A DNA stretch of 53,131 nt from Clostridia bacterium (GTDB lineage: Bacteria > CBDUZB01 > JAGLHV01): positions 1 to 53,131 of the forward strand of contig DAOVVV010000017.1 in assembly GCA_030637025.1 (NCBI GenBank), in the 5' to 3' direction. The position numbers were made by a program, and so were the translations under genes. This document shows, piece after piece, positions 21,618 to 50,880 of this stretch. How positions within the stretch are numbered: position 1 is the first letter of the stretch; the number at the start of each line of letters is the position of its first letter. Below the pieces are notes generated by a model, which saw only the letters and a program-made list of their open reading frames with translations, was not told the origin of the DNA and ran no database searches.

Positions 21618-21792
21618 AATTTATACTTCACTCATTTTTAGTATAGCATCATTTTTGCAATTCGTCAAGAGCAAAATTAAGTTTTTATACAATTTTTTTC
21701 ATAGTTACTTCAAATTATTAGTAAAATAATAGGAATTAGACCCGAACTTCAGATAAAGACTATTAAAATTTCAGGTTTAACTCCTATTCATT

Positions 21793-22098
21793 TTATCTTT
21801 TCTTTTTTTTATTTTTCTTTTTAGGAGATTTCAACAATATCCATCCAATAACCACACCTGCGATTATAATAAAAACTAATCCTTTATTGCCCTTCTCAAT
21901 TTCTTCTTTTTTCTCTTCGGGCTTTACCTCTGCTTTTTCCCCGGAAACAACAGTCTCTACCGGTGCTTCCACTTTTTTACTTTCCAGACGCCTTTCTACC
22001 GGAGATGAACCAACTATTTTAACCCCGGCAGCTCCTCTTGCAAACAACATTCCTAATACCAAAAAACTAAAAATTACTAGCGAAAATTTCTTTATCAT
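21793..22098 (-). CDS. Small exported protein with C-terminal membrane anchor
   Basis: Signal peptide, charged linker, C-terminal TM plus basic tail; directly downstream of X3. Confidence 0.65.
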   Translation of the reverse strand: MIKKFSLVIFSFLVLGMLFARGAAGVKIVGSSPVERRLESKKVEAPVETVVSGEKAEVKPEEKKEEIEKGNKGLVFIIIAGVVIGWILLKSPKKKNKKKKR

Positions 22099-22147
22099 TT
22101 TTTTCTCTCCTATATTTTTTTAAAACTCATTTGTTTACTACTTTCTG

Positions 22148-23887: not shown

Positions 23888-23925
23888 TTTTTTCTACCCC
23901 CTCTTTAAAAAAATAACGCATCGAC

Positions 23926-23969
23926 AAAAAAACCGGATTACCAATTTTTTTTAACTTTCGGTAACCCGG
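23926..23969 (-). terminator. Intrinsic terminator overlapping the 3' end of aptamer 3
   Basis: CCGGGTTACCGA...TTGGTAATCCGG followed by T7; the 5' arm is the aptamer P3/P1 3' strand. Confidence 0.8.
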
Positions 23970-24040
23970 CTTTCGCTATTACTTAATAGTGGCCCGTGGC
24001 TTTGCGTCTTCGTTTTACAACGAATTTGCTTTTGTCTCTT
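23955..24040 (-). ncRNA. c-di-GMP-I-family riboswitch 3, G20A variant (candidate c-AMP-GMP sensor)
   Basis: Minus strand GACAAAAGCAAATTCGTTGTAAAACGAAGACGCAAAGCCACGGGCC...AGCCGGGTTACCGA; AGCAAA instead of GGCAAA (position 24030). Confidence 0.85.
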
Positions 24041-24190
24041 AAAATTTTAAGGCACTATATCTACTTTCCCTTTACTATAAGGATATCACTTTTTTCTTCT
24101 TTGTCAACAGAAAACAGTATTTATTATTATTTACCAAAAAGAAATGTTTCCGTTTTTAAAATCTTTGCGAAAAAAAATAAAAAGTTATTT

Positions 24191-24877
24191 TCACTGCTTT
24201 AAATTAGGCGGACTGACTCCCGAGGTTAATGTTATTTCTTCATATCCTGCAGCTGCCTTTTTGTCTCCTGCTCCTTTTTTTACCGTTAAATTAATTTCGA
24301 TATAGCGAATATTATATCTATCATTACCAGAAATCGGAAATGTAAAGACATTTCCTGACTCGTCTCTATATTTAAATTCAAGATTTTCCACCCCCACTTG
24401 CGGCAAAGTAAAATCCATATCAAGAACTCCATACGCAGATACAGAACGTTTTTGAATTTTTTTTCTGGAAGTACCGGAAATAGGCATCATAGAAAAAGTT
24501 ACCGTCTCCGTATCTCTATTAACCGACCAGGTAGTAGTATCTTCTTTAAGTCCATCCCCATTTACATCCCTGATTACTGCATTAAAACTAATTCTATTCT
24601 GCTGGGCTATATTAATTGCCTGTCCAATACCGGGGGGTATGTCTGTTGAAGCTCTATTTCCATAAATATATCCCGCCTGTTTTATATCCTTAACCATCTG
24701 ATCCAGTGCTATTCGGGCATTCTGTTGAACATCCCGCCGCTGATTTGATTTGAACCAGACTTGTTGATTTCTTTTTTGCACCAAACTCCCCATCAATACC
24801 ACCACAGATAAAATAGCAACACTAATTATTACTTCTAACAAAGTAAAACCTTTTTGTTTTCTGTCTTTCTTTCGCAT
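24191..24877 (-). CDS. Type IV minor pilin, PilW-like (W2)
   Basis: KG|FTLLE; close paralog of W1 (QRRDVQQNARIAL, GVSPPNL). Confidence 0.85.
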   Translation of the reverse strand: MRKKDRKQKGFTLLEVIISVAILSVVVLMGSLVQKRNQQVWFKSNQRRDVQQNARIALDQMVKDIKQAGYIYGNRASTDIPPGIGQAINIAQQNRISFNAVIRDVNGDGLKEDTTTWSVNRDTETVTFSMMPISGTSRKKIQKRSVSAYGVLDMDFTLPQVGVENLEFKYRDESGNVFTFPISGNDRYNIRYIEINLTVKKGAGDKKAAAGYEEITLTSGVSPPNLKQ

Positions 24878-24890
24878 TTTTTTCTCCTCT

Positions 24891-25370
24891 TTACGGTGAA
24901 GAAAGTATCGTTTGCAGTGTTACCGCTTTCAATAATGTTTCTGTGGAAGAACCTAACGGCTCTACCCAAACGGTTATGGTCTTATAGCTCGATGTTCCAA
25001 TAGGTGTAGTAATTACCCTGTAATGTCTATTAACCTTCATCGTTTTCGCACCTGAAATAAAAGTAATCGGATTATTCGGGTCGGGGTGATTTCCATCGAC
25101 AAGAGTAAGCTCTTGATATCCTGTAGTATTATTGAGAAGAGCATCGTCATTGGTATCACCATTTATATACCCGGTCGGCGTAGAAGCTATTCTTTTTATG
25201 GTTTCAATTAATTCGCGGGTTTGTGCTACCGCAAAGGTTTCCCATCTATCCCGGGTATTAACTCGCATCATCGCTATAAACATAGGCATAAGACCCATTA
25301 ATAGGGTAACTAAAACAACCATAGCAATAATCACTTCCATTAAAACCATCCCTCTACTGTTTTCTTTCAT
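24891..25370 (-). CDS. Type IV minor pilin, PilV-like (V2)
   Basis: RG|MVLME; paralog of V1 (RDRW, GDTND, SSYKT). Confidence 0.8.
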   Translation of the reverse strand: MKENSRGMVLMEVIIAMVVLVTLLMGLMPMFIAMMRVNTRDRWETFAVAQTRELIETIKRIASTPTGYINGDTNDDALLNNTTGYQELTLVDGNHPDPNNPITFISGAKTMKVNRHYRVITTPIGTSSYKTITVWVEPLGSSTETLLKAVTLQTILSSP

Positions 25371-36920: not shown

Positions 36921-37068
36921 CCATCCGCCATTAGCGGACCACGTAGTTTTGCCTGTCTAATTTTTTACCTTTTGACAGACCCGACCACCACAAAAAGAAT
37001 TTTTTCATTAAATCTTTTTGATCCGGCAGACGAGCGTCCCCCAATCACTCGAGGTTTGCCTTTTCAAT
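36908..37068 (-). ncRNA. c-di-GMP-I-like riboswitch 4, split by 83 nt (or a degenerate tandem)
   Basis: P2 GGCAAACCTCGA-GTGA-TTGGGGGACGC, then 83 nt (37033-36951), then P3 AAAACTACGTGGTCCGC...GCGGATGGCCGGGTTACC. Confidence 0.7.
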
Positions 37069-37302
37069 ATCTATTATCTTTTTTACTATATTTTATACTA
37101 CAATTATATCACAAATTTACTAATTTATCTATGTGTTTTCTATCACATTATAAAAAACCCACTCTATCCCGGAACAATCCCCTCCTCTCCGTTATGCTCT
37201 TATATTGTCCCTAAATATAAAAAGATTTCGTGTTTTCCTTATAAACTTATTTATGCTTTTATGTATCTTCCCTAAAACTAAAATACTAAAATTCCTTCCG
37301 GC

Positions 37303-37953
37303 TTATTTTTCGAGTGGTTTGTGACAAAACCACCAGTCATATCCTTCAAATTCCTTTAGCCTTTTTTGGGCAGTTTGTTCATCTTTTGCCGGTGGAACAA
37401 TAATACGGTCACCTATCAACTCATTATTCGGCCATCCTGCCGGCACAGCACCTTGTTTATCTGATATTTGAAGTGCTTTAACTGCTCGAACAACTTCATC
37501 CATATTTCGGCCGACTTCCTGCGGATAGTACATTATCAAACGAACTTTACTCTCAGGATCAACGATAAATACTGCCCGGACAGTGTTTGTCCCTTTCCCC
37601 GGGTGCAACATGCCAAGTTTTAAGGCAACGGAATCATTTGCTGCAACAATCGGAAATTTAATCTCAACATCTAGTTTTTCTTTTATCCATTGAACCCATT
37701 TGATATGAGAAAAGACCTGATCGATGGACATCCCAATTAATTGACATTTAAGCTTATTAAATTCCTCGTATCTCTTTTGAAATGCAACAAATTCTGTTGT
37801 GCAAACCGGAGTAAAATCCGCAGGATGACTAAACAGCACAAACCATTTCCCTTTCAGATCACCCGGGATATTCATTGGCCCGTGTGTCGTTTGAACCTTC
37901 AGTTCCGGAAAGTCATCCCCCAATAACGGCATGTTGATTTTTGTTTCTTCCAT
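37303..37953 (-). CDS. Peroxiredoxin (Prx6/archaeal-type)
   Basis: [24 protein letters not shown]-terminal DWWFC. Confidence 0.95.
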
Positions 37954-37988
37954 TTCGTTCTTCCTCCCTTTTGTTAATTATTTATTAT

Positions 37989-38062
37989 GCCTAACGACCA
38001 AAATCAGCAGTTTTTCCAACGGCAAAGACCCGGAAAAAGTCCGTTGTGTTGAGTGGTTAAGC
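37989..38062 (-). mobile_element. Solo integron attC site
   Basis: Minus (top) strand GCTTAAC-5nt-AACACAACGGAC-TTTTTCC..GGAAAAA-CTGCTGATT-6nt-GTTAGGC; an upstream ORF remnant stops at the TAA inside R''. Confidence 0.75.
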
Positions 38063-38158
38063 CGTTTTATGTCCACCAGAATAATTCCCATTCTTTCTTG
38101 CTTTTCCCTTAGATGTTTTTTATGTATTGTTTTATATCCAAAAATGCGTAGTTAAAAA

Positions 38159-38460
38159 TCAACTGATAAATTCAATATAATTATTCGGTGATATTAGATG
38201 ATACTCGGATTTTTTGTACGTTTTACACCATTCTTTTGGTGATTTTAGTTTTTTATCCTGCCACTTTATTCAATAACCAAACAAATTCCCGTCAACTTCC
38301 TCAATAAAATATTGTTCTTTTACGTCTTTGTCTTTTAAAAATTGCTTTAGAAAAGTAGTCTTACCACATCTTCTTGGCCCATAAACAAGTACTACCTCTT
38401 CCAGACCAAGAAACTTATGAATATTTTTTAATTGATATTGTGGGATATAAATAAATTCAC
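38159..38460 (-). pseudogene. Internally deleted AAA+ ATPase/DUF4143 (COG1373-like) relic
   Basis: Manual translation: VVLVYGPRRCGKTT (Walker A) joined almost directly to the C-terminal IEEVDGNLFGY*IKW, with an in-frame stop. Confidence 0.75.
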
Positions 38461-38596
38461 CGTATTTATTATAATTGAGTCACTTAACTGACCAAATTAT
38501 ATAATATTTATCCGATTTTGTCAGTCTATTTGTTACTATAATCGGCAGGGGTCACAATTAATGTCGTATGTCCTCTAAAACATAAACTAAAACTAA

Positions 38597-38863
38597 TTAT
38601 TCATAATGTGTCCACATACGAATAATTTTTATCTTTTTATATTGCTTTATAACTTGATATATCAGTCGATGTTGAATATTTATTCTGCGAGAATAAGCTC
38701 CTTCGAGATCACCTACTAATTTTTCTAACGGAGGGGGAATTTGAAAAGGGTTTTTTTCTAATATTTCAAGAAGAATTTCTGCTTTTTGACGTAATCCTGC
38801 ATGAGAAAGTTTTTTTGCGTCTTTTTGTGCTTGTTTTGTATAAACCAGTTTCCACTTTACCAT
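38597..38863 (-). CDS. yoeB: Txe/YoeB family toxin
   Basis: EKLVGDLEGAYSRRINIQHRLIY...MWTHYE; overlaps the antitoxin stop. Confidence 0.93.
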   Translation of the reverse strand: MVKWKLVYTKQAQKDAKKLSHAGLRQKAEILLEILEKNPFQIPPPLEKLVGDLEGAYSRRINIQHRLIYQVIKQYKKIKIIRMWTHYE

Positions 38864-39099
38864 TTTAACTTTTTATCGCATTTCTTAAGAGGAGTTTTTA
38901 ATCCTTTGATAATAGATTTTCTCATTCCCGGAATGGAAAGCAGATATAGGGTTTCATTGATTGCAAGCCAATCCTCTTCCGCAATTAAAACAGCATTATG
39001 TCTTTTTCCGGTAATTTGTATTGGCTTATGCGCTTCAGCTACTTTATCTAACAACTTATATAAATTTGCTCTTGCTTCACTAGCTGTAAGTACTGTCAT
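38857..39099 (-). CDS. yefM: Phd/YefM family antitoxin
   Basis: SEARANLYKLLDKV...AVLIAEEDW...ETLYLLS. Confidence 0.93.
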   Translation of the reverse strand: MTVLTASEARANLYKLLDKVAEAHKPIQITGKRHNAVLIAEEDWLAINETLYLLSIPGMRKSIIKGLKTPLKKCDKKLKW

Positions 39100-39119
39100 T
39101 TTAATTACCTCCTATTTAA

Positions 39120-39148
39120 AGCGTACCATATTATGTACGTAATGTCAA
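39120..39148 (-). promoter_or_regulatory. yefM-yoeB promoter with GTAC-core operator palindrome
   Basis: TTGACA-17-TACGCT overlapped by CGTAC-N8-GTACG. Confidence 0.65.
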
Positions 39149-39267
39149 GCAACAATTTTAATTTGTCTTCGCATTTTTTCCGCAATTTTGCCATCATCCA
39201 CATAAAAGTCTCCTTTTAAACTTCTCCTTCTTCCGTTTTCCATCATTTTATAAGTCTTTTCTTTTTT

Positions 39268-39738
39268 TCATTTCAGAGAATATAACCCCGCTTTTTCAAA
39301 TAAATTTTCTTGATATTCTTTAGTCCAATCCGTAGATTTATCTTCCGAAAAAACATCAAAAATATTATCGTAATTTGTAATTACTTCATCTATTGAGTTT
39401 TCAAATGCAGAAAATCTTTGGCTGCAATCCCCTATTCCTTCCGCATAAATTACTAATGGATAAATTCCATTCGATTGATCTACTACGACAAACCCTAAAT
39501 CTTCTTTTAACGGAAAAATTTCGAGAAACCATTCCTTTTTAAAATGTGCTTTATTCTCAATACTGCTCTTCAACTCTCTCAAAGTTTTTATTCCTGAATT
39601 TTTATCAAAGCCAGTTGAATCAAGATAACGCCTTAGAGAATAACAAATCACATATCTATAACATACGGGATAATCCTGTTTTTCATCTTTTCCCAAAAAC
39701 CACTCATTTTCTTTCAAAATTTTCAAATTTCTTGGCAT
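39268..39738 (-). CDS. Hypothetical protein
   Basis: 156-aa ORF with GGGGGGAG RBS; no motif recognised. Confidence 0.6.
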   Translation of the reverse strand: MPRNLKILKENEWFLGKDEKQDYPVCYRYVICYSLRRYLDSTGFDKNSGIKTLRELKSSIENKAHFKKEWFLEIFPLKEDLGFVVVDQSNGIYPLVIYAEGIGDCSQRFSAFENSIDEVITNYDNIFDVFSEDKSTDWTKEYQENLFEKAGLYSLK

Positions 39739-39831
39739 CTCCCCCCCCTTTTTTATTTATACTTTTTTTCTGCGTCCTTATAATTTTATTTTTAACATTA
39801 CCGTTTTTTTTAACCAGGACATGAATAAGAA

Positions 39832-40698
39832 TTAAATGGTTTTAATTTTATCGCAAATAACCCGAAAATATTTTTCCGACCAAAGCTTAAGAGATGAAGT
39901 ATCTTTTAGAAAATTTTCAACATCTTCTTTAGCCTTATCAAAATCCGTAGTCTTGATTTTTTCTAAAAGCATTCTTTTTAGTGTTTCTTCATTTAAACAT
40001 GCACTCTTTTTTAAAAATCCTGTCTGTTTCATCCTATTTTCAAGATGTTTCAAACGAACCGCTATATCTCTTCCCACAAACCATACCATATCATACCAAT
40101 CTCTTCCTTTTACCCTATTCCCCCATGACCTGCATAAGACCGCATGTAATTTCCCTGCAAAAAGATCAGGCTGAACATAAGTATTAACTGAAAAAGGTAC
40201 CGGATGAAAAAGGTATTTGGCTTCCACCTGAAATCCTTGCGGAGGATTTACATCAACTTCTATTTTTATTTTTAGTATTTTTCCCGGATGTATTCTTTTA
40301 GTTGCAGATTTGGGGATATCAATCATAATCATATTTTGTAATGTCCCCGTCTTAATAAAGGCAGAATCGATATTCGTTTGTATTTTTTTTTTCTTCTCGT
40401 CAATAGTTACAGAAAATCCAAAGCTCTTCAATTCGTTTTTAACGGCCTTACAATAACTCATTAATGAAAATTTTTTATTTCTCTTCAGAAGTGAAAAATC
40501 CATGTCCTCAGAAAATCGATCAAGTCCGTATAGTATTCTTAACGCCGATTCTCCGTAAAAACAAGCTTTCTCGAAAAATTTCGAACGCCAAAAACCAAGT
40601 AATGCTATCTCCTGAATTATTTCTTTCAAAGCATTTTCATAATCATCCGTGCCTCGACAGTTATACCGGGACAACATTATTCTTATAGCATCATTCAT
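39832..40698 (-). CDS. abiEii: AbiEii-family nucleotidyltransferase toxin (type IV TA)
   Basis: FYGESALRILYGLDRFSEDMDFS, KLHAVLCR...KGRDWYD. Confidence 0.9.
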   Translation of the reverse strand: MNDAIRIMLSRYNCRGTDDYENALKEIIQEIALLGFWRSKFFEKACFYGESALRILYGLDRFSEDMDFSLLKRNKKFSLMSYCKAVKNELKSFGFSVTIDEKKKKIQTNIDSAFIKTGTLQNMIMIDIPKSATKRIHPGKILKIKIEVDVNPPQGFQVEAKYLFHPVPFSVNTYVQPDLFAGKLHAVLCRSWGNRVKGRDWYDMVWFVGRDIAVRLKHLENRMKQTGFLKKSACLNEETLKRMLLEKIKTTDFDKAKEDVENFLKDTSSLKLWSEKYFRVICDKIKTI

Positions 40699-41321
40699 TT
40701 TATCCCCTTAAGCAATTTATAAAAAAACTTAACATTTTGTCCGTACAATTGGGCTAATTTTTTAATTTTATTTAAACTAAAATTTTTAAGATCCTTTTTC
40801 TCAATTCTTAAATCTTCAAAAAGGTATTCTCTCATCTGATTTTCATCAATGATTTTATTCGAGAAATATATCAAATCGCTAAGAGCCTTTTCTTTAGTAG
40901 CAATTAAAATCGTATGAAAATTATCTATTTTGTAAAGAGTTGTACCATATGAAAAAACCGCCGGATTTATGTGCCGGTATGAAAAAACCCCGAGTGGCGT
41001 AGTAAAAAGTTTCTTCCTCTTATTTGTAACACTGGTAACGGTCTTTACCCTTTCAGGAATTAACCCATAAAAAGAAAGTGCATATTCAAGAGAAATATAT
41101 GAAGGACCATAAATCAGGTTTGCCAATGTTTCTTTTGAGTATGGTTGCCTGGATAAGTCAGGGCCAAACACATAAAGCCCCTTTTTCACCCGTATTATTT
41201 TACCTTTCTTAAGCAAATCATTTATTTTCACTCGCGGATTTTTATATTTCGATAGCGCACAAATAAGAAGATTATAATCAAATTCTTCCGTTAAAGCTAA
41301 TTTTCTTAGATTCATAAACAT
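40695..41321 (-). CDS. abiEi: AbiEi-family antitoxin
   Basis: IIRVKKGLYV, PSYISLEYALSFYGLIPE, ATKEKALSD; coupled to abiEii. Confidence 0.88.
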   Translation of the reverse strand: MFMNLRKLALTEEFDYNLLICALSKYKNPRVKINDLLKKGKIIRVKKGLYVFGPDLSRQPYSKETLANLIYGPSYISLEYALSFYGLIPERVKTVTSVTNKRKKLFTTPLGVFSYRHINPAVFSYGTTLYKIDNFHTILIATKEKALSDLIYFSNKIIDENQMREYLFEDLRIEKKDLKNFSLNKIKKLAQLYGQNVKFFYKLLKGIK

Positions 41322-41339
41322 TTTTATTCTCTCCAGTAT

Positions 41340-41375
41340 GTTAGTATATTACTAACTTACCGGTTGTTTGTCAAG
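41340..41375 (-). promoter_or_regulatory. abiE promoter with inverted-repeat operator
   Basis: GTTAGTA-TAT-TACTAAC (41340-41356) overlapping the -10 of TTGACA-17-TAATAT. Confidence 0.55.
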
Positions 41376-41427
41376 ACAAAAGTCTGAATGGGAAGTTTGA
41401 ATGGAAAAGTCAACAGGGAATGGTTGT

Positions 41428-41678
41428 TTGTGGGATGAGAAAAAGACGGAGTGGAGTTGTTTCCAGCCAGAGGCTGATCTTCGGAAATGTGTGCAGTTTG
41501 TTTGCGGAGTGAGAACGGAGCAAAGTAATTGGTGCCTGTCCACATCAGGAGGAAACGGATTTCTTTGCTTTAAGAATTTAAGCAAAGAAAAAAATGTTTT
41601 TGAGTGTTAACGAAAAATCATTTGGTGAACGAACAGACATTAAACAAATGGAGCGGAGTGTTTTTGGGGGTGGGGATA
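41428..41678 (+). repeat. Repeat B copy 1 (structured fold-back element, with two small insertions)
   Basis: Aligns with 44968-45161 and 47084-47181; inserts at 41463-41485 and 41535-41553. Confidence 0.88.
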
Positions 41679-41698
41679 GGCGGAGGGTAAGTAAATTT

Positions 41699-42190
41699 TT
41701 ATGCGGGGTTGGGACTTTTACTTAGTAACAATTCAAGTTTTTCCATGAAATATTCAGTTAATATGCATTGATTTGTAAAACCAGGCCAATATGAATGGTC
41801 TACTTTTTTTAAGAAAAATAAAAATCCTCCTGTAACATCAAACATTTTTCTACCGGTTTTTGAACTGAATGTATCTGTATAATCTGTGAGCCGTTCATTT
41901 AATACTTTGAACCAAATATTTATATCTCCATCTTTAATGATTTTTTTAAAGATAAGATTAAAAAATATATTTCTTAATTCAAAGGAAATACGACGATCTA
42001 AGCTCGAATAAAGTTCGAAAAAGAAAAGATATAAAAAAGCTAACTCGCTTTTTAAAATATTTTTCCGATTATCGAAAAAGTCAACCTTAAACCCGCTAAG
42101 AGAAGATATTTTATTAAGATTTTCGGGCTTTAACTCTTCATGAATCCATTCAAACAGGACATCAATCAAATTTTTTTCAATTTCATTCAT
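41699..42190 (-). CDS. Hypothetical protein (cargo X1)
   Basis: 163-aa ORF lying between repeat A1 and repeat B1. Confidence 0.6.
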   Translation of the reverse strand: MNEIEKNLIDVLFEWIHEELKPENLNKISSLSGFKVDFFDNRKNILKSELAFLYLFFFELYSSLDRRISFELRNIFFNLIFKKIIKDGDINIWFKVLNERLTDYTDTFSSKTGRKMFDVTGGFLFFLKKVDHSYWPGFTNQCILTEYFMEKLELLLSKSPNPA

Positions 42191-42204
42191 TCACTTTTCA
42201 CCTG

Positions 42205-42411
42205 TTATTCCTTTGGTCTTTCCGGGGTAGTTAGTTGTTTTATGGTGACTTCCAGGGTGTTCTTTTTCTTTTTTAGCTTTTTATAGGTTGTTTCTATGGA
42301 TTCTAATTATTTTGATGTCTTTGCCGAGTCGTCTTTTAGTTGTTTGACCAGGGCTTCGGTGGTTTCAAATTTATATTCTTTGCCGGAAATTTTTGTGGTT
42401 AGTTTTACCAT
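42205..42411 (-). pseudogene. Repeat A ORF copy 1 (nonsense mutation)
   Basis: Near-identical to 47370..47585 but GAA>TAA at 42307-42309; promoter block continues to ~42487. Confidence 0.88.
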
Positions 42412-42541
42412 GGGGATTCCTTTTGGCTGTTAAGTTGTAATATGGAATATGGTAACAAAAAGGAAGGGAAAAGTCAATGTGAGACGGAAAGAGATCAATA
42501 AAATCAGGTTAACTATTTGTTATTAATTGTTTTCTCATTCG

Positions 42542-43039
42542 CTATTTGAAATAAAAGTTCATTCCTAAATTGACTACAAATTCTATTCCACTTACACTCA
42601 AATCAAACTCATCTTCAGTAAGACCGACATAAGCAGGACCTATGTCTGCACTCAGAGCAAATCTTCGATTAATAAAATATTCTCCTCCAACAAAAAGAGA
42701 ACAAACATAACCTGTACCTTCAACATCTTCTTGGTTATCCTCAGATAAAACATAATCTACATAGTCTATACCTAATCCGGTAAAGAGCAAACCTTTTTTA
42801 TAATGATTAAAATTACAATATCCCCTCATTCCATAGACTCCTATTTCATCCTCATATGCACCCCTTGCTTCTATTGCCCAGTTTTGTTGGAAGTTATATT
42901 TAAAAGAAAGATATGGCCAGCCAAGACCAATGCCAAACGTATGGTTTGTATCACTAGCTCCGGCTGCTATTCCGGCAAAACTAAATAGTATAATTCCCAA
43001 GATTAAAACCACCCACTTCTTTAATTGTTTTGTCCTCAT
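42542..43039 (-). CDS. Small outer-membrane beta-barrel protein
   Basis: Signal peptide, alternating beta-strands, terminal LGMNFYFK. Confidence 0.75.
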   Translation of the reverse strand: MRTKQLKKWVVLILGIILFSFAGIAAGASDTNHTFGIGLGWPYLSFKYNFQQNWAIEARGAYEDEIGVYGMRGYCNFNHYKKGLLFTGLGIDYVDYVLSEDNQEDVEGTGYVCSLFVGGEYFINRRFALSADIGPAYVGLTEDEFDLSVSGIEFVVNLGMNFYFK

Positions 43040-43130
43040 CTTTATAACCTCCCCATCATAATTCTTTATTGGATATTATTTGTTTTATCAACCAATGACC
43101 CTAAAACATAATTATTGGGCCGCTTTTTCA

Positions 43131-44834
43131 TTATTCATTCTCATACCTGTTTGAATAAATGTTACCCCCCTGCGTCCAAACAGCAAGTGCATTTCCGCTT
43201 GAATCTATCGCAACCTGAGGAGGATAATAGGGATATCCTGTATTATCAGCAATTAAGTGAGCTGTCCCCCATCCTGTTCCCAACTCATACCTGTTTGACC
43301 AAATGTTAGACCTTGTACCATCATGCTGCTGCCAGACAGCAATGGCATTTCCACTTGAATCTATTGCAATCTGAGAACCCCCGGCACTTCCTGCATCATC
43401 GGTTTCAATTAACTGGGCTACACCCCATCCTGTTCCTAACTCATACCTGTTGGACCAGATGTTAAACCTTATACCATCATACTGCACCCAGACAGCAATG
43501 GCATTCCCACTTGAATCTATTGCAATCTGAGAACCCCAGGCACTTCCTGCATCATCAGTTTCAATTAACTGAGCTGTCCCCCATCCTGTTCCCAACTCAT
43601 ACCTGTTGGAACAAATGTTAGCCCTTGTACCATCATGCTGCTCCCAGACAGCAATGGCATTCCCACTTGAATCTATTGCAATCTGAGAACCCCCGGCACT
43701 TCCTGCATCATCAGTTTCAATTAACTGTGCTGTTCCCCAACCTGTGCCCGATACATACCTGTTGGACCATATGTTAGACCTTGTGCCATCAGACTGGGAC
43801 CAAACAGCAATTGCATTTCCACTTGAATCTATTGCAATCTGAGAACCCCCGGCACTTCCTGCATCATCAGTTTCAATTAACTGAGCTGTCCCCCATCCTG
43901 TTCCCAACTCATACCTGTTTGACCAAATGTTGTCCCTTAGGCCATCATTCTGTCTCCAGACAGCAATGGCATTTCCACTTGAATTTATTGCAATCTGAGG
44001 ATAATAAACATCTCCAGCATTATCGTTTTCAATCAACTGAGCTGTCCCCCATCCTGTTCCCAACTCATACCTGTTTGACCAGATGTTAAACCTTATACCA
44101 TCATACTGCACCCAGACAGCAATGGCATTCCCACTTGAATCTATTGCAACCTGAGAATACCCGGCACTTCCTGCATCATCAGTTTCAATTAACTGAGCTG
44201 TCCCCCATCCTGTTCCCAACTCATACCTGTTTGACCAAATGTTGTCCCTTAGACCATCATACTGCATCCAGACAGCAATGGCATTCCCACTTGAATCTAT
44301 TGCAACCTGAGAATACCTGGCATTTCCTTCATTATCGGATTCAATCAATTGTGGGGCTCCCCACCTTGAGGTTTTAAGTGTCCAGACCGGCCCAGACGAA
44401 CATGCGCCATTATTATCTTTTGCAACTACCTTCCAATAATAAGTATTAGCGCAAGATAATGTTACCGGATTATAAGTAGTAGTTGTTTGGTCATCTGAAA
44501 TAAGAGGAGGGTTGGTTGAATTGCCAAAGTATAGTTCATAGGTCACTATATCTCCTGTATCCGGATCACCACCTGTCCAGGAAAGATCTACAGTTACTAA
44601 TTGATCAGTTGCTCCATCTGCAGGTGTTGGATTTGATGGGATACTTGGTGGATTATTTTGTGGATTATTAAGAATGAATATCTCTTCTCTCTTTTTTTCT
44701 ACCTTCTCCTTCAAATCTTCTCCCCTATTCTTGATAGCCCCGGTTATTCCAAAGTTGAATCTTGCATAACTAAAATCTGTAAGATAGAAAAAACCCAATA
44801 AGATAGTTATTGACACCATTATCTTCTTATTCAT
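43131..44834 (-). CDS. Secreted protein with FN3/Ig-like domain and eight 52-aa repeats (probable beta-propeller; cargo Y2)
   Basis: Signal peptide; PSNPTPADG...TYYWKVVAKD; eight QxAIDSSGNAIAVW...WSNRY..GTGWG units (156-bp DNA repeats). Confidence 0.82.
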   Translation of the reverse strand: MNKKIMVSITILLGFFYLTDFSYARFNFGITGAIKNRGEDLKEKVEKKREEIFILNNPQNNPPSIPSNPTPADGATDQLVTVDLSWTGGDPDTGDIVTYELYFGNSTNPPLISDDQTTTTYNPVTLSCANTYYWKVVAKDNNGACSSGPVWTLKTSRWGAPQLIESDNEGNARYSQVAIDSSGNAIAVWMQYDGLRDNIWSNRYELGTGWGTAQLIETDDAGSAGYSQVAIDSSGNAIAVWVQYDGIRFNIWSNRYELGTGWGTAQLIENDNAGDVYYPQIAINSSGNAIAVWRQNDGLRDNIWSNRYELGTGWGTAQLIETDDAGSAGGSQIAIDSSGNAIAVWSQSDGTRSNIWSNRYVSGTGWGTAQLIETDDAGSAGGSQIAIDSSGNAIAVWEQHDGTRANICSNRYELGTGWGTAQLIETDDAGSAWGSQIAIDSSGNAIAVWVQYDGIRFNIWSNRYELGTGWGVAQLIETDDAGSAGGSQIAIDSSGNAIAVWQQHDGTRSNIWSNRYELGTGWGTAHLIADNTGYPYYPPQVAIDSSGNALAVWTQGGNIYSNRYENE

Positions 44835-44905
44835 AATTTACCTCCATTTTAGATAATAAAAAAATTAGATTTAAAAGCTTTTAATAGAATAACCTCTTAT
44901 TTATC

Positions 44906-45161
44906 ATTACAAATACAGTTAACAATGTCAACAAATTTTTTAAGTATTATTTAAGAAAAAATTTGCCTTGTGGGCTAGGAAAACCGGAGTGGAGTTGTTT
45001 AATGTTTGTAGTTTGTTTGCAGAGTGATAGCGGAGCAAAGTAACTAGTGAACGGATTTCTTGTGTGAGCAAGAAAAAAATGTTTTTGAGTGCTAACGAAA
45101 AATCATTTGGTGAGCGAACATACATTAAACAGAATGGAACGGAGTGTTTGGAGTGGGGATA
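44906..45161 (+). repeat. Block D (promoter-like) plus repeat B copy 2
   Basis: 44906-44984 aligns with 47022-47102 (minus-strand TTGACA at 44931-44926); B core 44985-45144. Confidence 0.88.
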
Positions 45162-45174
45162 AATATAAGATTAT

Positions 45175-45885
45175 TTAAGCTTTTTTCTTTTTTTTGAATC
45201 CCATCAAACCTAAAAGACCTGTGCTTAAAAGTAGCATTGTTGCGGGTTCGGGAACAGGTTGGGAAGCTGGGGTATAATTTACTGTTAAAAGTGGGTGATA
45301 AGAAAGAAAGAGATGATCATCACTAGTAAATAGCGAGTGGTATACATATGGTGGTAATGCTTTCATAATCCAGCCATAATTATCAATACCATTTGACCAA
45401 TGCTGAAGAGAAGGGGTAACAGAAATATTAGTGAAAGGAATGCTCTCTAAAAATGTATCGTCGGGAATTGAAGACCAAGTAGCCGCACTAAAATTATTCC
45501 AAGTTACAGTCTCTTCATCCCATGGTGTATACAATTGGTTTATTTGTTTTGTATATTGCCAATGGCTATAAGTCTTCAAAGTAAGCGTTGCTGAATTGAT
45601 AGTTGACCCATAACTTATTTGTCCATCGGAATCACCAAAAATATTGAAAAAACCAATAAGAGTTTTTGCTTCTCCCCAAAAATCCCCTGCATAAAAGAAT
45701 GAACCCGAACCATAACAAACATCAGGATATCCCTCTAAAATCATCGTTCCGTCTGTTTCAGAGTGAGGATAAACCCCTTGCTGAAAATTTACTACAATTG
45801 CATGGGCATTAATTCCGGTTAAAAAAAGTATGCTGATAATGGCAAAAAAACACAAACTTAGTTTTATTCCTGTTTTTTTTCTCAT
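45175..45885 (-). CDS. PEP-CTERM protein with DNRLRE/CBM96-like domain (cargo X2)
   Basis: Signal peptide; SATLTL...WDEETVTWN...NYGW...PLLTVNY; VPEPATMLLL-TM-KKKKKA. Confidence 0.88.
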   Translation of the reverse strand: MRKKTGIKLSLCFFAIISILFLTGINAHAIVVNFQQGVYPHSETDGTMILEGYPDVCYGSGSFFYAGDFWGEAKTLIGFFNIFGDSDGQISYGSTINSATLTLKTYSHWQYTKQINQLYTPWDEETVTWNNFSAATWSSIPDDTFLESIPFTNISVTPSLQHWSNGIDNYGWIMKALPPYVYHSLFTSDDHLFLSYHPLLTVNYTPASQPVPEPATMLLLSTGLLGLMGFKKKKKA

Positions 45886-45969
45886 TGATTTCTCCCTGTT
45901 TTGGATCGAAATTCGAGGTTTACTTAATTATTTTAAGCTATTGTATATTTTTTGTGGAGTGGCTGTCAA
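45886..45969 (-). promoter_or_regulatory. Block C copy (promoter plus leader/RBS)
   Basis: TTGACA-18-TACAAT...ATCCAAAACAGGGAG; aligns with 49340-49422 and partly with 47330-47380. Confidence 0.7.
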
Positions 45970-46131
45970 TGATTTTTTAATCTTTTTCTTTTTTAGTTTT
46001 TTGTAGTTTCCTTCGATTGATTCTAATTCTTTTGATGTCTTGGCTGAGTCGTCTTTTAGTTGTTTGACCAGGGCTTCGGTGGTTTCAAATTTGTATTCTT
46101 TGCCGGAAATTTTTGTGGTTAGTTTTACCAT
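45928..46131 (-). CDS. Repeat A ORF copy 2 (C-terminus deleted, reads into block C)
   Basis: First 40 aa identical to copy 3; diverges after KKLKKKK. Upstream TTGACT-17-TACCAT and AAGGAG (to ~46207). Confidence 0.7.
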   Translation of the reverse strand: MVKLTTKISGKEYKFETTEALVKQLKDDSAKTSKELESIEGNYKKLKKKKIKKSLTATPQKIYNSLK

Positions 46132-46344
46132 GGGGGACTCCTTTGGCTGTTAGATTGTAATATGGGATATGGTAACAAAAAGAAAGGGAAAAGTCAATGT
46201 GGGACGGGGGATTTATTCTGACATTACCTTTGCTCTAACGGAAAAATATTCTGTTAGAATGTGAAATTAGGGTATCTGGAAAAGAGGGATTGAAATGTCC
46301 TATTATAGGGGTGTTCAGAGGACATTTTACCTACATCTATTAAA

Positions 46345-46974
46345 TTATTTTGCATCTTTATTTTCAATGTTCCCATTTGATTCAAATGTGCAGGAAATTA
46401 TATTCTGCATTGTCGCTTGATCTATAACTTTAATGCCATATTTAAATAAGTTAAATTTTCCGGTATGAGTTGGCATTCCATATATTCCATTTTTCCCTGA
46501 TAAAATTATATCTTTATCAGTTATATATCCAAAGATCTTTTCTTTTATTTTAATAATATAGGTCTTTCCTGCACCAATATAAAATTCTACTACTGAACAT
46601 GGTTTATCGTCAGCAGGCCCAGAATTATAAAAAAACATACCATTACTATTAATTCCTCCTCTAATATGATACACATTCCGAGTAATGTGGATTTTGTATT
46701 TTCCAGGTAAGACTTTCAACGGTTTACTATATAAATTGGGTTTGCTAAAAAAATGATGCAATAGTATTTCGTTTGATCCATCCTTCTCCTTCGAAATCGT
46801 AACTACGCAGCCAACATGCTCTTCAGAGTAATCTATTATAATTCTGCCAACACTACTCTCTGGGAGGGTAGATCCTTTATAAAGTTTCGTAGGATTGAGG
46901 CTAGCACATCCCATTAACATTAAAAAGAGAAACGAATATACAATGAGCATTTTAATCAAATTGTGAATTTTCAT
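46345..46974 (-). CDS. Hypothetical lipoprotein (cargo Y3)
   Basis: Lipobox LMGC; GAGGAG RBS. Confidence 0.72.
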   Translation of the reverse strand: MKIHNLIKMLIVYSFLFLMLMGCASLNPTKLYKGSTLPESSVGRIIIDYSEEHVGCVVTISKEKDGSNEILLHHFFSKPNLYSKPLKVLPGKYKIHITRNVYHIRGGINSNGMFFYNSGPADDKPCSVVEFYIGAGKTYIIKIKEKIFGYITDKDIILSGKNGIYGMPTHTGKFNLFKYGIKVIDQATMQNIISCTFESNGNIENKDAK

Positions 46975-47021
46975 ATATCAAATCTCCTCTTTTATATATA
47001 ATACATTACCTATTTAATAGT

Positions 47022-47181
47022 ATTACAAATATAATTACTTGTGTCAACAATTTTTTTAAGTATTATTTAAGAAGCAAGTTGTCTTGTGGGGCGGGGAAAA
47101 ACCGGAGTGGAGTTGTTTAATGTTTGCAGTTTGTTTGCGGAGTGAAAACGGAGCAAAGTAACTGGTGAACGGATTTCTTTG
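47022..47181 (+). repeat. Block D plus truncated repeat B copy 3
   Basis: Aligns with 44906 to ~45062; homology stops at GGATTTCTT. Confidence 0.85.
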
Positions 47182-47329
47182 TAGAAGTTTGATTTTCAGA
47201 AAGAGCCGACAACTTTTCAGTTGCTTTATTTACCTGTTCTTGAGCAAATGAAATATTAACAAAAAGACTCATGACGATCAAAACCAGCAAAATCACTCTA
47301 AAATCAATGTAATTGCCCTTTTTCCTCAT
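47182..47329 (-). pseudogene. 5' stub of a secreted-protein gene (cargo X3) deleted into repeat B3
   Basis: RBS AGGAGG, signal peptide ending SFA|QEQ; the frame then runs into B sequence (track ORF 47117..47329). Confidence 0.65.
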
Positions 47330-47369
47330 CTTCTTTTCCTCCTATTTTTTAGTTAATTATTTAACGTTA

Positions 47370-47585
47370 TTATATATTTACTTCCTTTGGTTTTTCACTT
47401 GTAGTCAGTTGTCTTATGGTGGCTTCCAGGGTGTTCTTTTTCTTTTTTAGTTTTTTGTAGGTTATTTCTATGGATTCTAATTCTTTTGATGTCTTGGCCG
47501 AGTCGTCTTTTAGTTGTTTGACCAGGGCTTCGGTGGTTTCAAATTTGTATTCTTTGCCGGAAATCTTTGTGGTTAGTTTTACCAT
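47370..47585 (-). CDS. Repeat A ORF copy 3, ~70-aa coiled-coil protein (most intact copy)
   Basis: MVKLTTKISGKEYKFETT + heptad-rich helix; AAGGAG RBS; TTGACT-17-TACCAT promoter ending at 47651. Confidence 0.75.
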   Translation of the reverse strand: MVKLTTKISGKEYKFETTEALVKQLKDDSAKTSKELESIEITYKKLKKKKNTLEATIRQLTTSEKPKEVNI

Positions 47586-47651
47586 GGGGGACTCCTTTGG
47601 CTGTTAGATTATAATATGGGATATGGTAGCAAATAGGAAGGAAAAAGTCAA

Positions 47652-49112
47652 TTATATGGATTTTGCTAAATTTTTATATTTTTCTGTATTTTCATAATTT
47701 CCGATTTTTTCGTAGGTAAAAGATAAATTATTGTAGGTCACCTTTAAATAATGATATTGTTTTATTTCTTTAAAAATCCCCTCTGCTTTCAAATAATATT
47801 CTATTGCCCTCTTATATTTTCCTAAGCTCTTATAAGCATTACCTAAATTTACATAGCATTTTGACTCTCCTTGCTTATCCCCAATTGCTCTAGCTATTTT
47901 TAAAGACTTCTTATAATATTTTATTGCCCTCTTATATTTTTCTAAGCTATCATAAGCAAGACCTAAATTTGTATAACATGCTGATTTTCCTTCCTTATCC
48001 CCAATTGCTTTAGCTATCTTTAAAGACTTATCATAATACTCTATTGCTCTCTTGTAATCTCTTAAGCTATCATAAGCAACACTTAAATTTACATAGCATT
48101 TTGACTCTCCTACCTTATCTCCAATTGCTTTAGCTATCCCTAAAGCCCTCTCCTGATACTCTATTGCTCGATTGTAATCTCCCAAGCTATTATAAACAAC
48201 CCCTAAATTGCCATAACATTTAGACTCCACTGCCTTATCCCCAATTGCTTTGGCTATATCTAAAGCCCTCTCTTGATATTCTATTGCCCGCTGAAAATCT
48301 CCTAAACTATGATAAGCAAGCCCTAAATTTGTATAACATGTTGATTCTCCTGGCTTATCCCCAATTGCTTTAACCTTCTCTAAAGCCTTCTCATGATATT
48401 CCTTTGCTCGCTTATATTCTCCTAAGTTATAATAAGTAATCCCCAAATTTCCATAACATCTATACTTTCCTTCCTTATCCCCAATTGCTTTAGCCTTCTC
48501 CCATTCGGTGGTGTAGTCTTGTTCAAACTGTTCTCCGCCTTGAAACCTTTTTGCTCGAATCCCCATTGCTATTTCTACACATATCCACCAGATGATGGTA
48601 ATCACGAGGATACTTTTAGTACTAATATCCCATGAAATTTTGGATTCATTAACCGTAATAACAAAAAGTCCTATACATAACCACCCTAAAACATCTATTA
48701 TGGTAGGAAAACCTTTTAAGAGGTCATGAGTTACTTTGCTTATTTTGATTTTTCCTTTCTCTTTTCTCAATTCTAAAAGGTTGGTTTCCCAAAAAACACC
48801 CGTTGCCTCATTTTCATAAAAAAATCGGATGTAAGATGCAATTCTGCGAAGTGTCTTCACTTGCTCTAGCATTAGGTAGTACCCGCTGGGTAGAACAAGG
48901 AGAGCAAATAAAACAATAAGACTGGGCCACAGCCACAGATCTTTGTTTTCATTTTTAAGAATTATTGCAAGGTTCATCAAACCAAAAGTAATGGCAAGTG
49001 TAGAAAAATAGATATTAAAACCCCTATTTAAAACCACTGAAATTTCTTCTTTTAATGCTCGATATTCCAGCAATTGATACTGTGATTTTGTTTCGTTTTT
49101 TCCCTCTCCCAT
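47652..49112 (-). CDS. 4-TM membrane domain fused to ~40-aa TPR repeats (cargo Y4)
   Basis: N-terminal LEYRALKEEI plus four hydrophobic segments; repeated AKAIGDKxGESxCYxNLG units (120-bp DNA repeats). Confidence 0.82.
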   Translation of the reverse strand: MGEGKNETKSQYQLLEYRALKEEISVVLNRGFNIYFSTLAITFGLMNLAIILKNENKDLWLWPSLIVLFALLVLPSGYYLMLEQVKTLRRIASYIRFFYENEATGVFWETNLLELRKEKGKIKISKVTHDLLKGFPTIIDVLGWLCIGLFVITVNESKISWDISTKSILVITIIWWICVEIAMGIRAKRFQGGEQFEQDYTTEWEKAKAIGDKEGKYRCYGNLGITYYNLGEYKRAKEYHEKALEKVKAIGDKPGESTCYTNLGLAYHSLGDFQRAIEYQERALDIAKAIGDKAVESKCYGNLGVVYNSLGDYNRAIEYQERALGIAKAIGDKVGESKCYVNLSVAYDSLRDYKRAIEYYDKSLKIAKAIGDKEGKSACYTNLGLAYDSLEKYKRAIKYYKKSLKIARAIGDKQGESKCYVNLGNAYKSLGKYKRAIEYYLKAEGIFKEIKQYHYLKVTYNNLSFTYEKIGNYENTEKYKNLAKSI

Positions 49113-49140
49113 AAAACATCCTCCCTTTAGATAAAAATCC

Positions 49141-49339
49141 TATGTGACTTTATAGATTATTAAATCTTTTATCGCTTTGTCTAACTTCTTTAGTTCAAAT
49201 ATTTTAAGTAAGTCTTCGTTTGGCTCGTATTTATCAGCAACTACCGGATTTGCATTAGTTTGTGAAGTAATGTCTATTAATCAAAATACCATAAATAAAT
49301 CCCTGTTGAAAGAAATTTTCTTTTTTTAGTGTTTTTCAT
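49141..49339 (-). pseudogene. Frameshifted/deleted gene remnant (cargo X4)
   Basis: ATG at 49339 behind the block C RBS gives only 20 aa; another frame continues IDITSQTNANPVVADKYEP to a stop at ~49141. Confidence 0.5.
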
Positions 49340-49422
49340 TTTTCCTCCTGTTTTGGATTGGAATTTAAGTCTTGGTTAATTATTTTTAACTTATTGTATA
49401 TTTATTTTTTTGGTGGTGTCAA
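49340..49422 (-). promoter_or_regulatory. Block C copy (promoter plus leader/RBS)
   Basis: TTGACA-18-TACAAT...ATCCAAAACAGGAGG. Confidence 0.7.
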
Positions 49423-49431
49423 GGAAATTTT

Positions 49432-49648
49432 TTATTTCTTTTCTTCTTTGGGTTTTTCAGTGGTGATTAGTTGTTTTATGGTGGCTTCCAGGGTGTTCTT
49501 TTTCTTTTTTAGTTTTTTATAGGTTGTTTCTATGGATTCTAATTCTTTTGATGTCTTGGCTGAGTCGTCTTTTAGTTGTTTGACCAGGGCTTCGGTGGTT
49601 TCAAATTTGTATTCTTTGCCGGAAATTTTTGTGGTTAGTTTTTACCAT
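49432..49648 (-). pseudogene. Repeat A ORF copy 4 (+1 frameshift in codon 3-4, promoter missing)
   Basis: GTGGTTAGTTTTTACCAT has one extra T versus the other copies; the rest encodes ...EKPKEEKK*. Confidence 0.85.
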
Positions 49649-49666
49649 AGGGACTCCTTTTTTAAA

Positions 49667-50578
49667 TTATTTATAAATTAAGTTAAAAAGTTTGTTGGCT
49701 AATTCCTTGTCTAATTCCTTCAATATTTTGTATTCCTTAAGCGATTCACCTCTTCTGCCTAAAACATAATAATCTCTTCCAAGATTATAATGCGCCAATG
49801 AAAAATTAGGATTTATCTTTATCGCCTCTTTATGCTCCTTAATCGCCTTATCATACAAACCTTTTCTGTAATAACTCATGCCAAGATTATTATGTGCAAG
49901 CGCATGCTCCGGATTAATCTTTATCGCTTTTTTATATTCCTCCATTGCTTTATCATATAGGCCTTTATTCCCATAAGCCACCCCAAGATTATAATATGCT
50001 TTTGCATAATTAGGATTTATCTTTATCGCCTCTTTAAATTCCCTTATCGCTTTATCCCACAATCCTTTATTCCCATAGGCCAATCCAAGAAAAAAATGCC
50101 CACCTGCATAATCAGGATTAATCCTTATCGCCTTTTTAAATTCCTCTATCGCAAATTCATATCTGTTTTGTTTTATATAAGCTCTTCCTTGTAAAATATA
50201 AGGATACGCATTTTTTTTATATTTATCTTTCCATTTTTTACATTCTTCTTCAATTTCAATAAATTTATTTTCGTTTAAAAGGGTTTTAAGTAGTTCATAT
50301 TTCTCTTTTTGAAATTTGTTTTCGGCTTCTGCCTGCCCAGAAAAAATAATTTCTTCTGTTTCATTTTCACCTTGTAGCGAAGAAACCTCTGTATATCCTT
50401 GATCAATAACTAATTCTATTTTTTTCTCCTCTTTTGATAATTTGACCCTTTTAGATTTTTTTATAAATTCACTTATAGGTTCTCTAAAAATAATTAAAAT
50501 AAATACACCAAGTACAAACACGCATATTGTCCATTGACACTTTTTTATTAAATCAATTAATAATTTTAAAATTTCCAT
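49667..50578 (-). CDS. Membrane-anchored TPR protein
   Basis: N-terminal TM, then 34-aa TPRs (AIKINPxxAxAxYNLG). Confidence 0.88.
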   Translation of the reverse strand: MEILKLLIDLIKKCQWTICVFVLGVFILIIFREPISEFIKKSKRVKLSKEEKKIELVIDQGYTEVSSLQGENETEEIIFSGQAEAENKFQKEKYELLKTLLNENKFIEIEEECKKWKDKYKKNAYPYILQGRAYIKQNRYEFAIEEFKKAIRINPDYAGGHFFLGLAYGNKGLWDKAIREFKEAIKINPNYAKAYYNLGVAYGNKGLYDKAMEEYKKAIKINPEHALAHNNLGMSYYRKGLYDKAIKEHKEAIKINPNFSLAHYNLGRDYYVLGRRGESLKEYKILKELDKELANKLFNLIYK

Positions 50579-50617
50579 TTTATAATTTTCTATCCTTTCA
50601 AGTTCTGAAACTTCTTT

Positions 50618-50857
50618 TTAATCATCGTCCTCATGGGTAATGTTAAACATTGCCCAGATGGGACGATGGTCGGATACGGCTAATTTTGCTTTTGTGTCGT
50701 CATTATTAAACATTGTTTCATCGAACATGTCAATACCGGAATTTTGGTTATATTCGGTTACATATTCATTTTGAAACCAGAAATTATCTAAAAGAAATTT
50801 TGTAATTTCTGAGGACTTTCTAATTCTTTTTTCTCCTTTCTCGACTATCTCCTTTTT
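50618..50857 (-). pseudogene. 3' fragment of an endonuclease/exonuclease/phosphatase (DNase I-like) gene
   Basis: Manual translation ...LDNFWF...SGIDMFDE...AVSDHRPIWAMF...DDD*; SDH-P catalytic motif, no start or N-terminal half. Confidence 0.72.
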
Positions 50858-50880
50858 TCAATATCGGATTTAGGGTAATT

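Follow-up and report, generated by a model that had tools for sequence, protein, structure and literature searches.

How does a chromosome come to carry unrelated genes strung between repeated blocks of DNA, with no integrase, transposase, or rep gene beside them? The question is raised by a 53,131-nt stretch, here called the window, of contig DAOVVV010000017.1 from a Clostridia bacterium (assembly GCA_030637025.1), in which an initial reading without database searches (the sequence-only reading) had seen such an array and none of these three kinds of gene, an absence that was borne out. The array occupies 41426-50788 and contains two kinds of repeat: block A, a promoter and ribosome-binding site (RBS) with a gene of 67 to 71 aa, and a folded element of ~200 nt that we name EB. 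We consider it probable that a genus-specific MOBF mobilizable plasmid, or plasmid-derived integrated element, left the chromosome with this copy of its cargo region, now in partial decay; the repeats of that element, of the CUP, EGeRS, and PeSL type, would serve as homology arms and their chromosomal remnants as landing pads. Below, G000 is the genome of the window, and G001, G002, and G003 are the other three genomes of its genus; C-numbers denote their contigs, and L-numbers denote loci in them (L032 is G001 contig C159).

Repeats with changing neighbors

The sequence-only reading described four conserved blocks in the fixed order A-C-X-B-D-Y, with unrelated genes in slots X and Y. Four A copies are indeed present on the minus strand, 91 to 95% identical, and scans of open reading frames (ORFs) and families bore out that the genes between the blocks are unrelated. 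A is the promoter-plus-small-ORF block that was proposed, except that only one of the four copies (A2) has an intact ORF. Three copies of the fold-back element B exist too, although B is only the 3' half of EB. Block C was recovered at 49340-49425 and 45886-45972 (76% alike, E 2e-12) and only partially near 47330-47380, and the D copies at 46989-47078 and 44878-44960 are 77% alike. The fixed order, however, is confined to the window, and only A and EB recur across the genus. Behind A, C stands in three window copies (two by BLAST, one by eye) but in none of the 19 others whose downstream side could be seen. Of 13 EB copies, 3 have D behind them and 7 have a promoter of another type. As promoters, C and D are interchangeable.

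Neighbor mapping covered 24 A matches. Within 12 arrays, fragments counted, A and EB take turns in 21 of 25 steps (P 0.0004 against a pooled null of 12.6 and P 0.014 against a within-array null of 16.7), with related arrays not being independent. Three different genes stand upstream of A copies that are followed by one and the same repeat; members of an 86-aa gene family lie 5' of EB, with three different neighbors downstream; and a promoter with a TPR gene follows EB behind three different upstream genes. Likewise, the membrane-TPR gene of the window and a SIR2-TPR gene of G003 have only the TPR end and the following A in common. Because the same neighbor on one side goes with different neighbors on the other, we conclude that A, EB, and TPR repeats have been the sites of crossovers, for which homologous recombination is the most likely route; TPR family F0 is a third homology block beside A and EB. 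The ends of truncated A copies are scattered over many positions, evidence against a single fixed site.

Among 41 genomes searched, strong block matches were limited to the four of this genus, and four others gave single weak matches (E about 4e-4 to 9e-4). A matches, fragments included, number 9 in G000, 10 in G001, 1 in G002, and 11 in G003. A covariance model found two full EBs and a half in G000, six and a fragment in G001, and two in G003, while G002 and the 17 genomes tested from beyond the genus had none (matches in 3 of 21 overall). Neither A, EB, nor Rep (see below) had a match in the metagenome and viral contigs scanned, and the element is absent from the literature found in a search directed at analogous systems rather than at this lineage. 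Paralogous A copies are 87 to 95% alike, comparable to orthologous housekeeping DNA (91%).

Could the array have been stitched together by an assembler across near-identical repeats? Support is limited in length, in that no public contig piece spans the whole array, as such an artifact would have it. Against this, the cargo/repeat junction pieces listed are reproduced, with 0 to 4 differing letters, by independent contigs from three public runs of one study, which may be that of the source sample, the copies differ by 5 to 9% and bear private lesions, and the same architecture occurs in other genomes. An artifact is thus extremely improbable.

A mobilizable element bearing the same repeats

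The link to a plasmid comes from G001. Besides one A and one EB, its contig C159 has genes for TIR proteins, a coupling protein, ParA, a 174-aa tyrosine recombinase, and a Rep preceded by iterons. Exact 141-bp overlaps join C159 to C1, which has a relaxase gene, and to C48, which has an A, two EBs, and a relaxase gene. The contig path ends in this second relaxase copy (93.5% alike) and represents either a circle with variants or tandem elements; by arithmetic, one turn of the element would be about 23 kb. Cargo contig C11 ends in an insertion sequence (IS) end, and the partner end with an 8-bp duplication opens C1; judging from a peptide motif, we take this IS to be of the ISL3 family. In G003, a single contig (C337) holds three A matches, an EB, and a relaxase gene. 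The relaxase scores above the MobF cutoff (157 versus 100 bits). In PLSDB, the only matches to Rep are three Endomicrobium plasmids, and its 182 protein matches are mostly unnamed, with the few named ones coming from Elusimicrobia. The full set of backbone genes was found in G001, the relaxase was found in G003, and Rep/ParA was found in G002; G000 gave no match to Rep, relaxase, or coupling protein.

These contigs support a non-integron array in which repeated blocks supply promoters to varying cargo, as the sequence-only reading inclined to think. Its other suggestion, of elements mobilized in trans, holds insofar as contigs of G001 and G003 that bear A/EB do carry a MOBF relaxase, coupling protein, Rep, and ParA; a stack of autonomous units with defined ends is not supported, since terminal inverted repeats are absent and truncations fall at many different points. 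An identity as an IS or miniature inverted-repeat transposable element was also rejected, the longest exact inverted match between 30-nt ends being 3 to 5 nt in 7 of 7 intervals. We likewise reject simple tandem duplication, as the sequence-only reading had done.

Alternation and combinatorial neighbors hold on the relaxase-linked contigs too, and the cargo genes of the window are intact and retain their promoters. Both observations oppose the idea that the array is neutral debris, left by repeated plasmid insertions and random deletions, with repeats that have no continuing role in capture. The idea would account for the three broken A copies of the window, its stubs and half elements, and the lack of active deletion joints among those listed, yet we regard it as very unlikely. 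One candidate deletion, joint 45879-47347, was rejected, since it corresponds to a PEP-CTERM paralog on C66.

In relatives, the cargo includes TIR, SIR2, HEPN, and toxin-antitoxin genes besides lipoproteins, so the impression that cargo is mostly for the envelope or secreted does not extend beyond the window. No establishment families (antirestriction and the like) were found among the cargo proteins scanned, many of which have no family. As a separate observation, L032:7596-9028 and 11285-11521 contain a PDC-M50/Thoeris-like TIR module and a PDC-S16 candidate defense gene.

On four element contigs, 28 of 30 ORFs of at least 120 aa are co-directional with the relaxase gene, and cargo lies 5' of that gene in the same direction; in the window island, 10 of 10 such ORFs run one way. 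A 31-nt motif lies 5' of the relaxase gene in four contigs and consists, on the template strand, of an A/T inverted repeat and then a G/T run. We take it to resemble MOBF nick sites, and the nick site is a prediction only. If the motif is the nick site, then the cargo array is the leading region and its template strand is the one transferred. The usual place of a relaxase gene is beside the origin of transfer (oriT), in the lagging region (PMC11541004).

The 31-nt motif is absent from the window. In three genomes, it is also present at the border between a variable island and the rex promoter (G000 C66:2718-2767, in L076; G001 C183, L068:4756-4838; G003 C64, L039:314-373), with 0 matches in two shuffled genomes, and it is possible that this rex-site motif is a chromosomal oriT or a relaxase integration site. 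The island that it borders at rex is large and co-directional and consists of probable defense genes.

Chromosomal islands and a hotspot

In the window, the array is part of a variable island (39165-50875, minus strand) that runs from the alpha-2-macroglobulin stop codon to the yefM promoter; the rest of the island is AbiE and a 156-aa gene. In G002 (C4) and G001 (C25), that is, in two of three relatives, the site is empty and the stop abuts the promoter, with 50876 joined to 39164. Because the flanks join directly there, the island is an insertion relative to both genomes. In G003, other genes occupy the site. The order of AbiE, the 156-aa gene, yefM-yoeB, and a peroxiredoxin gene differs across the four genomes with no A or EB involved, and therefore, the site by itself counts as a hotspot. 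AbiE had been read as scaffold cargo following a B copy; its G001 counterpart lies behind the peroxiredoxin gene and has no B beside it, which contradicts this. Comparison of window positions 37257-41388 with L044, L045, and L047 places an AAA-ATPase remnant among the permuted modules as well. Several junctions of these modules lie at a TTGACA box or immediately before one, and the same is true of two truncated A copies.

Cargo islands occupy several chromosomal loci of G000, some with scraps of plasmid backbone, and such scraps occur in islands at asd (three genomes), bioY, and rex. These islands could be turned into an argument for host origin, whereby a flexible-island system of the chromosome, serving envelope and defense genes and spread by natural transformation, is the home of A and EB, and the plasmid captured part of it. 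Islands at several chromosomal loci in all four genomes are in keeping with this origin, as are host-family cargo and the presence of ComEC in 4/4 genomes (86 to 98% complete), in none of which VirB4 was found. Nevertheless, the backbone scraps have no host role, chromosomal A copies are mostly broken (ORF A is intact in 3 of 12 chromosome-anchored copies versus 3 of 5 on relaxase-linked contigs), and G002 has only one A match and no full EB. We find a host origin quite unlikely.

Several small features accompany the islands. Plasmid scraps from before the recombinase gene end the asd and bioY islands (L061:54-482, L062:1-152, L001:4161-4318, and L036:3393-3431), and a 15-nt motif that adjoins these scraps occurs at other junctions too. 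A ~170-aa ORF with several copies per genome (L063, L066, L067, and L077) is accompanied by a piece matching the DNA just 3' of the plasmid rep gene.

The folded element EB

EB starts just 3' of a stop codon and ends just 5' of a promoter. With RNA energies, its consensus folds better on the template strand than on the sense strand (-33.0 versus -17.6 kcal/mol); with DNA energies, the strand gap is smaller and the fold is branched. Covariation consists mostly of one-sided changes, with only two to three two-sided pairs. Inside the stems are three in-register spots, found by eye, at which GGA faces GGA. The flanking G.A and A.G oppositions are kept in 10/10 and 10/10, 10/10 and 10/10, and 8/10 and 10/10 EB copies, and the middle purine and neighboring pairs vary compatibly. 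Of 10 copies, 8 have a two-zipper run of 12 to 13 nt; the sense strand never has it, and it turned up in 0 to 1 of 60 shuffles per copy, in a test that was post hoc and made on related sequences. The function of EB is putative. To our knowledge, (GGA)2 guanine zippers are otherwise known only from satellite-DNA structures. The motif has been described for satellite DNA (PMC11014236).

EB is not a canonical Frpo promoter: on the template strand, the best -35/-10 pair matches 7 to 8 of 12 positions, which 92 to 100% of shuffles equal, and on either strand, the best pair (7 to 9 of 12) is no better than in shuffles. Rfam has no family for A or EB, and a search of 72,556 PLSDB plasmids, made with EB and not with A, returned three short, chance-level matches. 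Two further observations concern sequences near the repeats. A c-di-GMP-I-GGC riboswitch (66.7 bits) lies at L034:3026-3110, directly 3' of an EB copy on the element. A third repeat, of ~185 bp, stands after A in three arrays (L032:11842-12026, L034:5218-5390, and L037:605-820) and alone at several chromosomal sites (G000 C11, C14, C65, and C66). There was no folding signal (z about 0) in the repeat after A or in the region before the recombinase gene.

Integron arrays hold co-directional cargo, including toxin-antitoxin and defense genes, and strand-biased hairpin repeats (attC). Co-directional variable cargo and strand-biased hairpin repeats are found here too; in contrast, attC boxes are lacking, the element has no integron integrase, and promoters are part of the scaffold itself. 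Specifically, core boxes R'' and R' occur in 0 of 10 EB copies on either strand, and the 174-aa recombinase scores 65 bits against a cutoff of 265 for TIGR02249. G000 has two PF00589 genes, which were not scanned against the integron model and are matched one-to-one by size in all four genomes. pdif modules were rejected too: no dif-like 28-bp site lies within five substitutions in window positions 39 to 51 kb, by a pattern presumed from other taxa, from which the dif of this host may differ. The sequence-only reading allowed that B might be a recombination or replication site; with neither attC boxes nor a dif-like site, a site-specific role is unsupported, and a role as a single-strand signal is plausible.

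A site-specific system might nonetheless do without an integron integrase if the relaxase or the 174-aa tyrosine recombinase exchanged DNA at a single-stranded structure, EB or the oriT-like motif, in the manner of attC. Such a system would draw on the attC-like strand bias of the EB fold and on the 31-nt motif at the rex-side island edge, and it has a precedent in R388 TrwC, which integrates DNA into chromosomal oriT (PMC3264647). It is hard to square with EB copies that lack attC boxes, an island that lacks both a dif-like site and the oriT-like motif, A truncations that end at many positions, and the use of two different long repeats plus TPR repeats as exchange points. We judge it unlikely; relaxase-driven integration, suggested by the rex locus, is the main rival to a plasmid cargo region shuffled by homologous recombination.

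Block A and its protein

The protein encoded in A is modeled as a beta-hairpin and a 44-residue helix (predicted local distance difference test [pLDDT], 87) and is 91% conserved over 19 aligned clusters. A ratio of nonsynonymous to synonymous polymorphism (pN/pS) of 0.14, from eight copies chosen as intact, indicates that gene A is under purifying selection. A tree of eight A copies did not resolve. The protein has 24 near-identical homologs and one distant 80-aa match (E 4e-4), no Pfam or NCBIfam family of note, and no Foldseek match at E <= 0.001 in PDB or viral models. In structure comparison, the best VIA Z was 5.0, to generic helices, and the best Atlas score, 0.81, is a lead only. A ZapA-like identity is unsupported (ZapA at E 7). 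The weakest step in our account is the suggestion that protein A may be a small oligomeric plasmid protein, possibly regulatory.

Comparison with known systems

The closest parallels are repeats that precede variable operons on plasmids. For CUP repeats of IncN plasmids (pKM101/R46 and IncN2), rearrangement by inter-repeat recombination has been proposed (PMC5371602, PMC6294495; context only, PMC6294495, PMC4853378). As here, conserved direct repeats head co-directional variable operons of a relaxase-bearing plasmid, with insertion, deletion, and rearrangement inside the region. Unlike CUP repeats, two unrelated repeat types alternate here, one with a protein gene, and no regulator was identified; the cargo comprises TPR lipoproteins, defense genes, and toxin-antitoxin genes, with copies in several chromosomal loci. 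In pLS20-family plasmids, EGeRS1 is structured and promoterless, and gene replacement between related plasmids is reported (PMC8708921). EB is similar in having no promoter of its own, a position before variable operons, and a predicted fold as single-stranded DNA (ssDNA) or RNA, but EGeRS1 spans 420 to 750 nt, whereas EB is ~200 nt long, has (GGA)2 motifs, and is followed by a normal promoter.

The Frpo/ssi elements of F and ColIb-P9 (PMC9849209, PMC11541004) are also multicopy, ~90% alike, and strand specific in their fold upstream of genes; that fold is on the transferred strand, as is presumed for EB. Frpo1/2 of F were noted as potential recombination substrates (PMC9849209), and EB differs from Frpo in having no canonical -35/-10 pair on either strand. 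In T4-type phages, PeSL cassettes, blocks of promoter and stem-loop, shuffle the unrelated genes that they flank by recombination (PMC2839356). Our blocks likewise lie between unrelated genes and bring their own promoters, whereas they occur on plasmid and chromosome, are of two types, and measure 200 to 280 bp; mini-circles were not seen in the contigs of four runs.

A proposed mechanism and its weak points

We propose that, on the element, direct repeats alternate between cargo: A provides a promoter or RBS and a small gene, and EB provides a folded spacer followed by a promoter. RecA-type recombination among A copies, EB copies, and TPR repeats would swap, add, or delete cargo together with its promoter. 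New genes would first arrive by illegitimate joints, often close to a -35 box. Copies left in the chromosome would become landing pads for later DNA, brought by conjugation or natural uptake, and after landing, the backbone would be lost and A would decay. The array would be the leading region of the plasmid, in which EB would fold on the transferred strand as a single-strand signal for priming or insulation; EB would be retained for this job, with its role in recombination being a by-product.

Several points weigh against this account. The AbiE, yefM-yoeB, and peroxiredoxin modules are permuted between genomes without A/EB. VirB4 was not found, and with ComEC present, either free-DNA uptake or an unbinned helper must therefore deliver the cargo. 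No clean A-to-A or EB-to-EB deletion joint appeared among the 15 of 37 joints listed, from four runs. The link from C11 to C1 is deduced from IS ends and a target duplication, the element is putatively circular, and three of the eight full EB copies in relatives sit on unplaced contigs. The leading-region status derives from a predicted nick site, and the cargo is unlike the typical antidefense set of leading regions. The pN/pS set was picked for intactness, and the small counts given here are not independent. Finally, the propeller, barrel, and PEP-CTERM cargo belongs to host families that occur without A/EB, and therefore, traffic between plasmid and chromosome is probably two-way.

A bolder extension, which is doubtful though worth stating, holds that EB represents a new class of guanine-zipper ssDNA signal and that, with A and chromosomal oriT-like sites, it takes part in two-way exchange, the relaxase delivering the leading region into pads and mobilizing islands back out. 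If that were true, then the system would be the counterpart of a superintegron, but without an integrase and distributed among several loci. More conservatively, we regard the system as a real, lineage-specific variant of a known principle, surprising for its scaffold in several chromosomal hotspots and for a candidate guanine-zipper ssDNA element. It would extend the repeat-mediated shuffling of CUP, EGeRS, and PeSL to a deep-branching uncultured lineage and would show that plasmid repeats can seed reusable chromosomal landing pads, an integrase-free route to hypervariable defense and envelope islands. EB itself offers a short candidate for the use of (GGA)2 guanine zippers in natural bacterial ssDNA.

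Features of the window

The features of the island are given here in the direction of its genes, all on the minus strand except for EB3 and EB4, to which no strand is assigned. At the boundary is a 55-bp remnant of an IS1380-family end (50822-50876); the same 55 bp occurs at many sites in G001 to G003, and in L054, it adjoins an IS1380 transposase on the 5' side. It is followed by a 3' gene remnant (50610-50788) that heads A arrays, with 88 to 92% matches in G001 (C11, C150, and C158) and G003 (C373 and C61), and which, from a motif, we take to be nuclease-like. Both had escaped the sequence-only reading. A 303-aa TPR protein (49667-50578; Pfam TPR), 1 of 12 members of family F0, has a C terminus running into A, and at the DNA level its gene matches one on backbone contig L032 at 79%. 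A1 (49432-49660) consists of an RBS and a frameshifted ORF A without the promoter, and C1 (49340-49425), a sigma-70-type promoter and RBS, leads into a 20-codon stub (49277-49339).

The membrane-domain and TPR protein of 486 aa (47652-49112) is next; its gene matches L037 at 83.7% over 820 bp, and the protein has a 69% match over residues 304 to 486. A2 (47370-47652) has a promoter and the sole intact ORF A (47370-47585; 71 aa). A partial C2 (RBS) then opens a 70-codon signal-peptide stub (together, 47117-47380) that continues into B2, the 3' half only of an EB (47079-47181), behind which D2, a sigma-70-type promoter (46989-47078), precedes a lipoprotein-like protein of 209 aa (46345-46974) with no homolog in G000 or the loci compared. 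In A3 (45981-46207), a promoter and an ORF A cut at nt 151 are fused to C3 (45886-45972), a promoter and RBS preceding a PEP-CTERM/DNRLRE protein of 236 aa (45175-45885). A C3-like block without A stands before the PEP-CTERM paralog on C66.

EB3 (44966-45165) is a full element of ~200 nt, with its best fold on the template (window plus) strand and (GGA)2 in register. D3, another sigma-70-type promoter (44878-44960), comes before a secreted propeller-like repeat protein of 567 aa (43131-44834), of a host family with paralogs on C53, C66, and C34, and a small outer-membrane beta-barrel of 165 aa (42542-43039), whose L030 homolog has the same post-EB position. A4 (42202-42487) retains its promoter and an ORF A with a premature stop; it is followed by a hypothetical protein of 163 aa (41699-42190) and by EB4 (41426-41679), likewise full, into which two additional hairpins (19 and 23 nt) are inserted. 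Beyond the array, AbiEi/AbiEii and the 156-aa gene (39268-41321) are hotspot modules moving independently of A/EB. One base of a G run at 39741, 5' of the 156-aa gene, is missing in 4/4 runs, and the extra G is probably a one-base assembly error.

Outside the island, a weak c-di-GMP-I-GGC match (25 bits) lies at 37021-37069, 5' of the gene for a 1,069-aa surface protein. Positions 16980-25370 contain two paralogous clusters of pilin-like genes, presumably of the minor type IV pilin or pseudopilin type, judging by an N-terminal motif.

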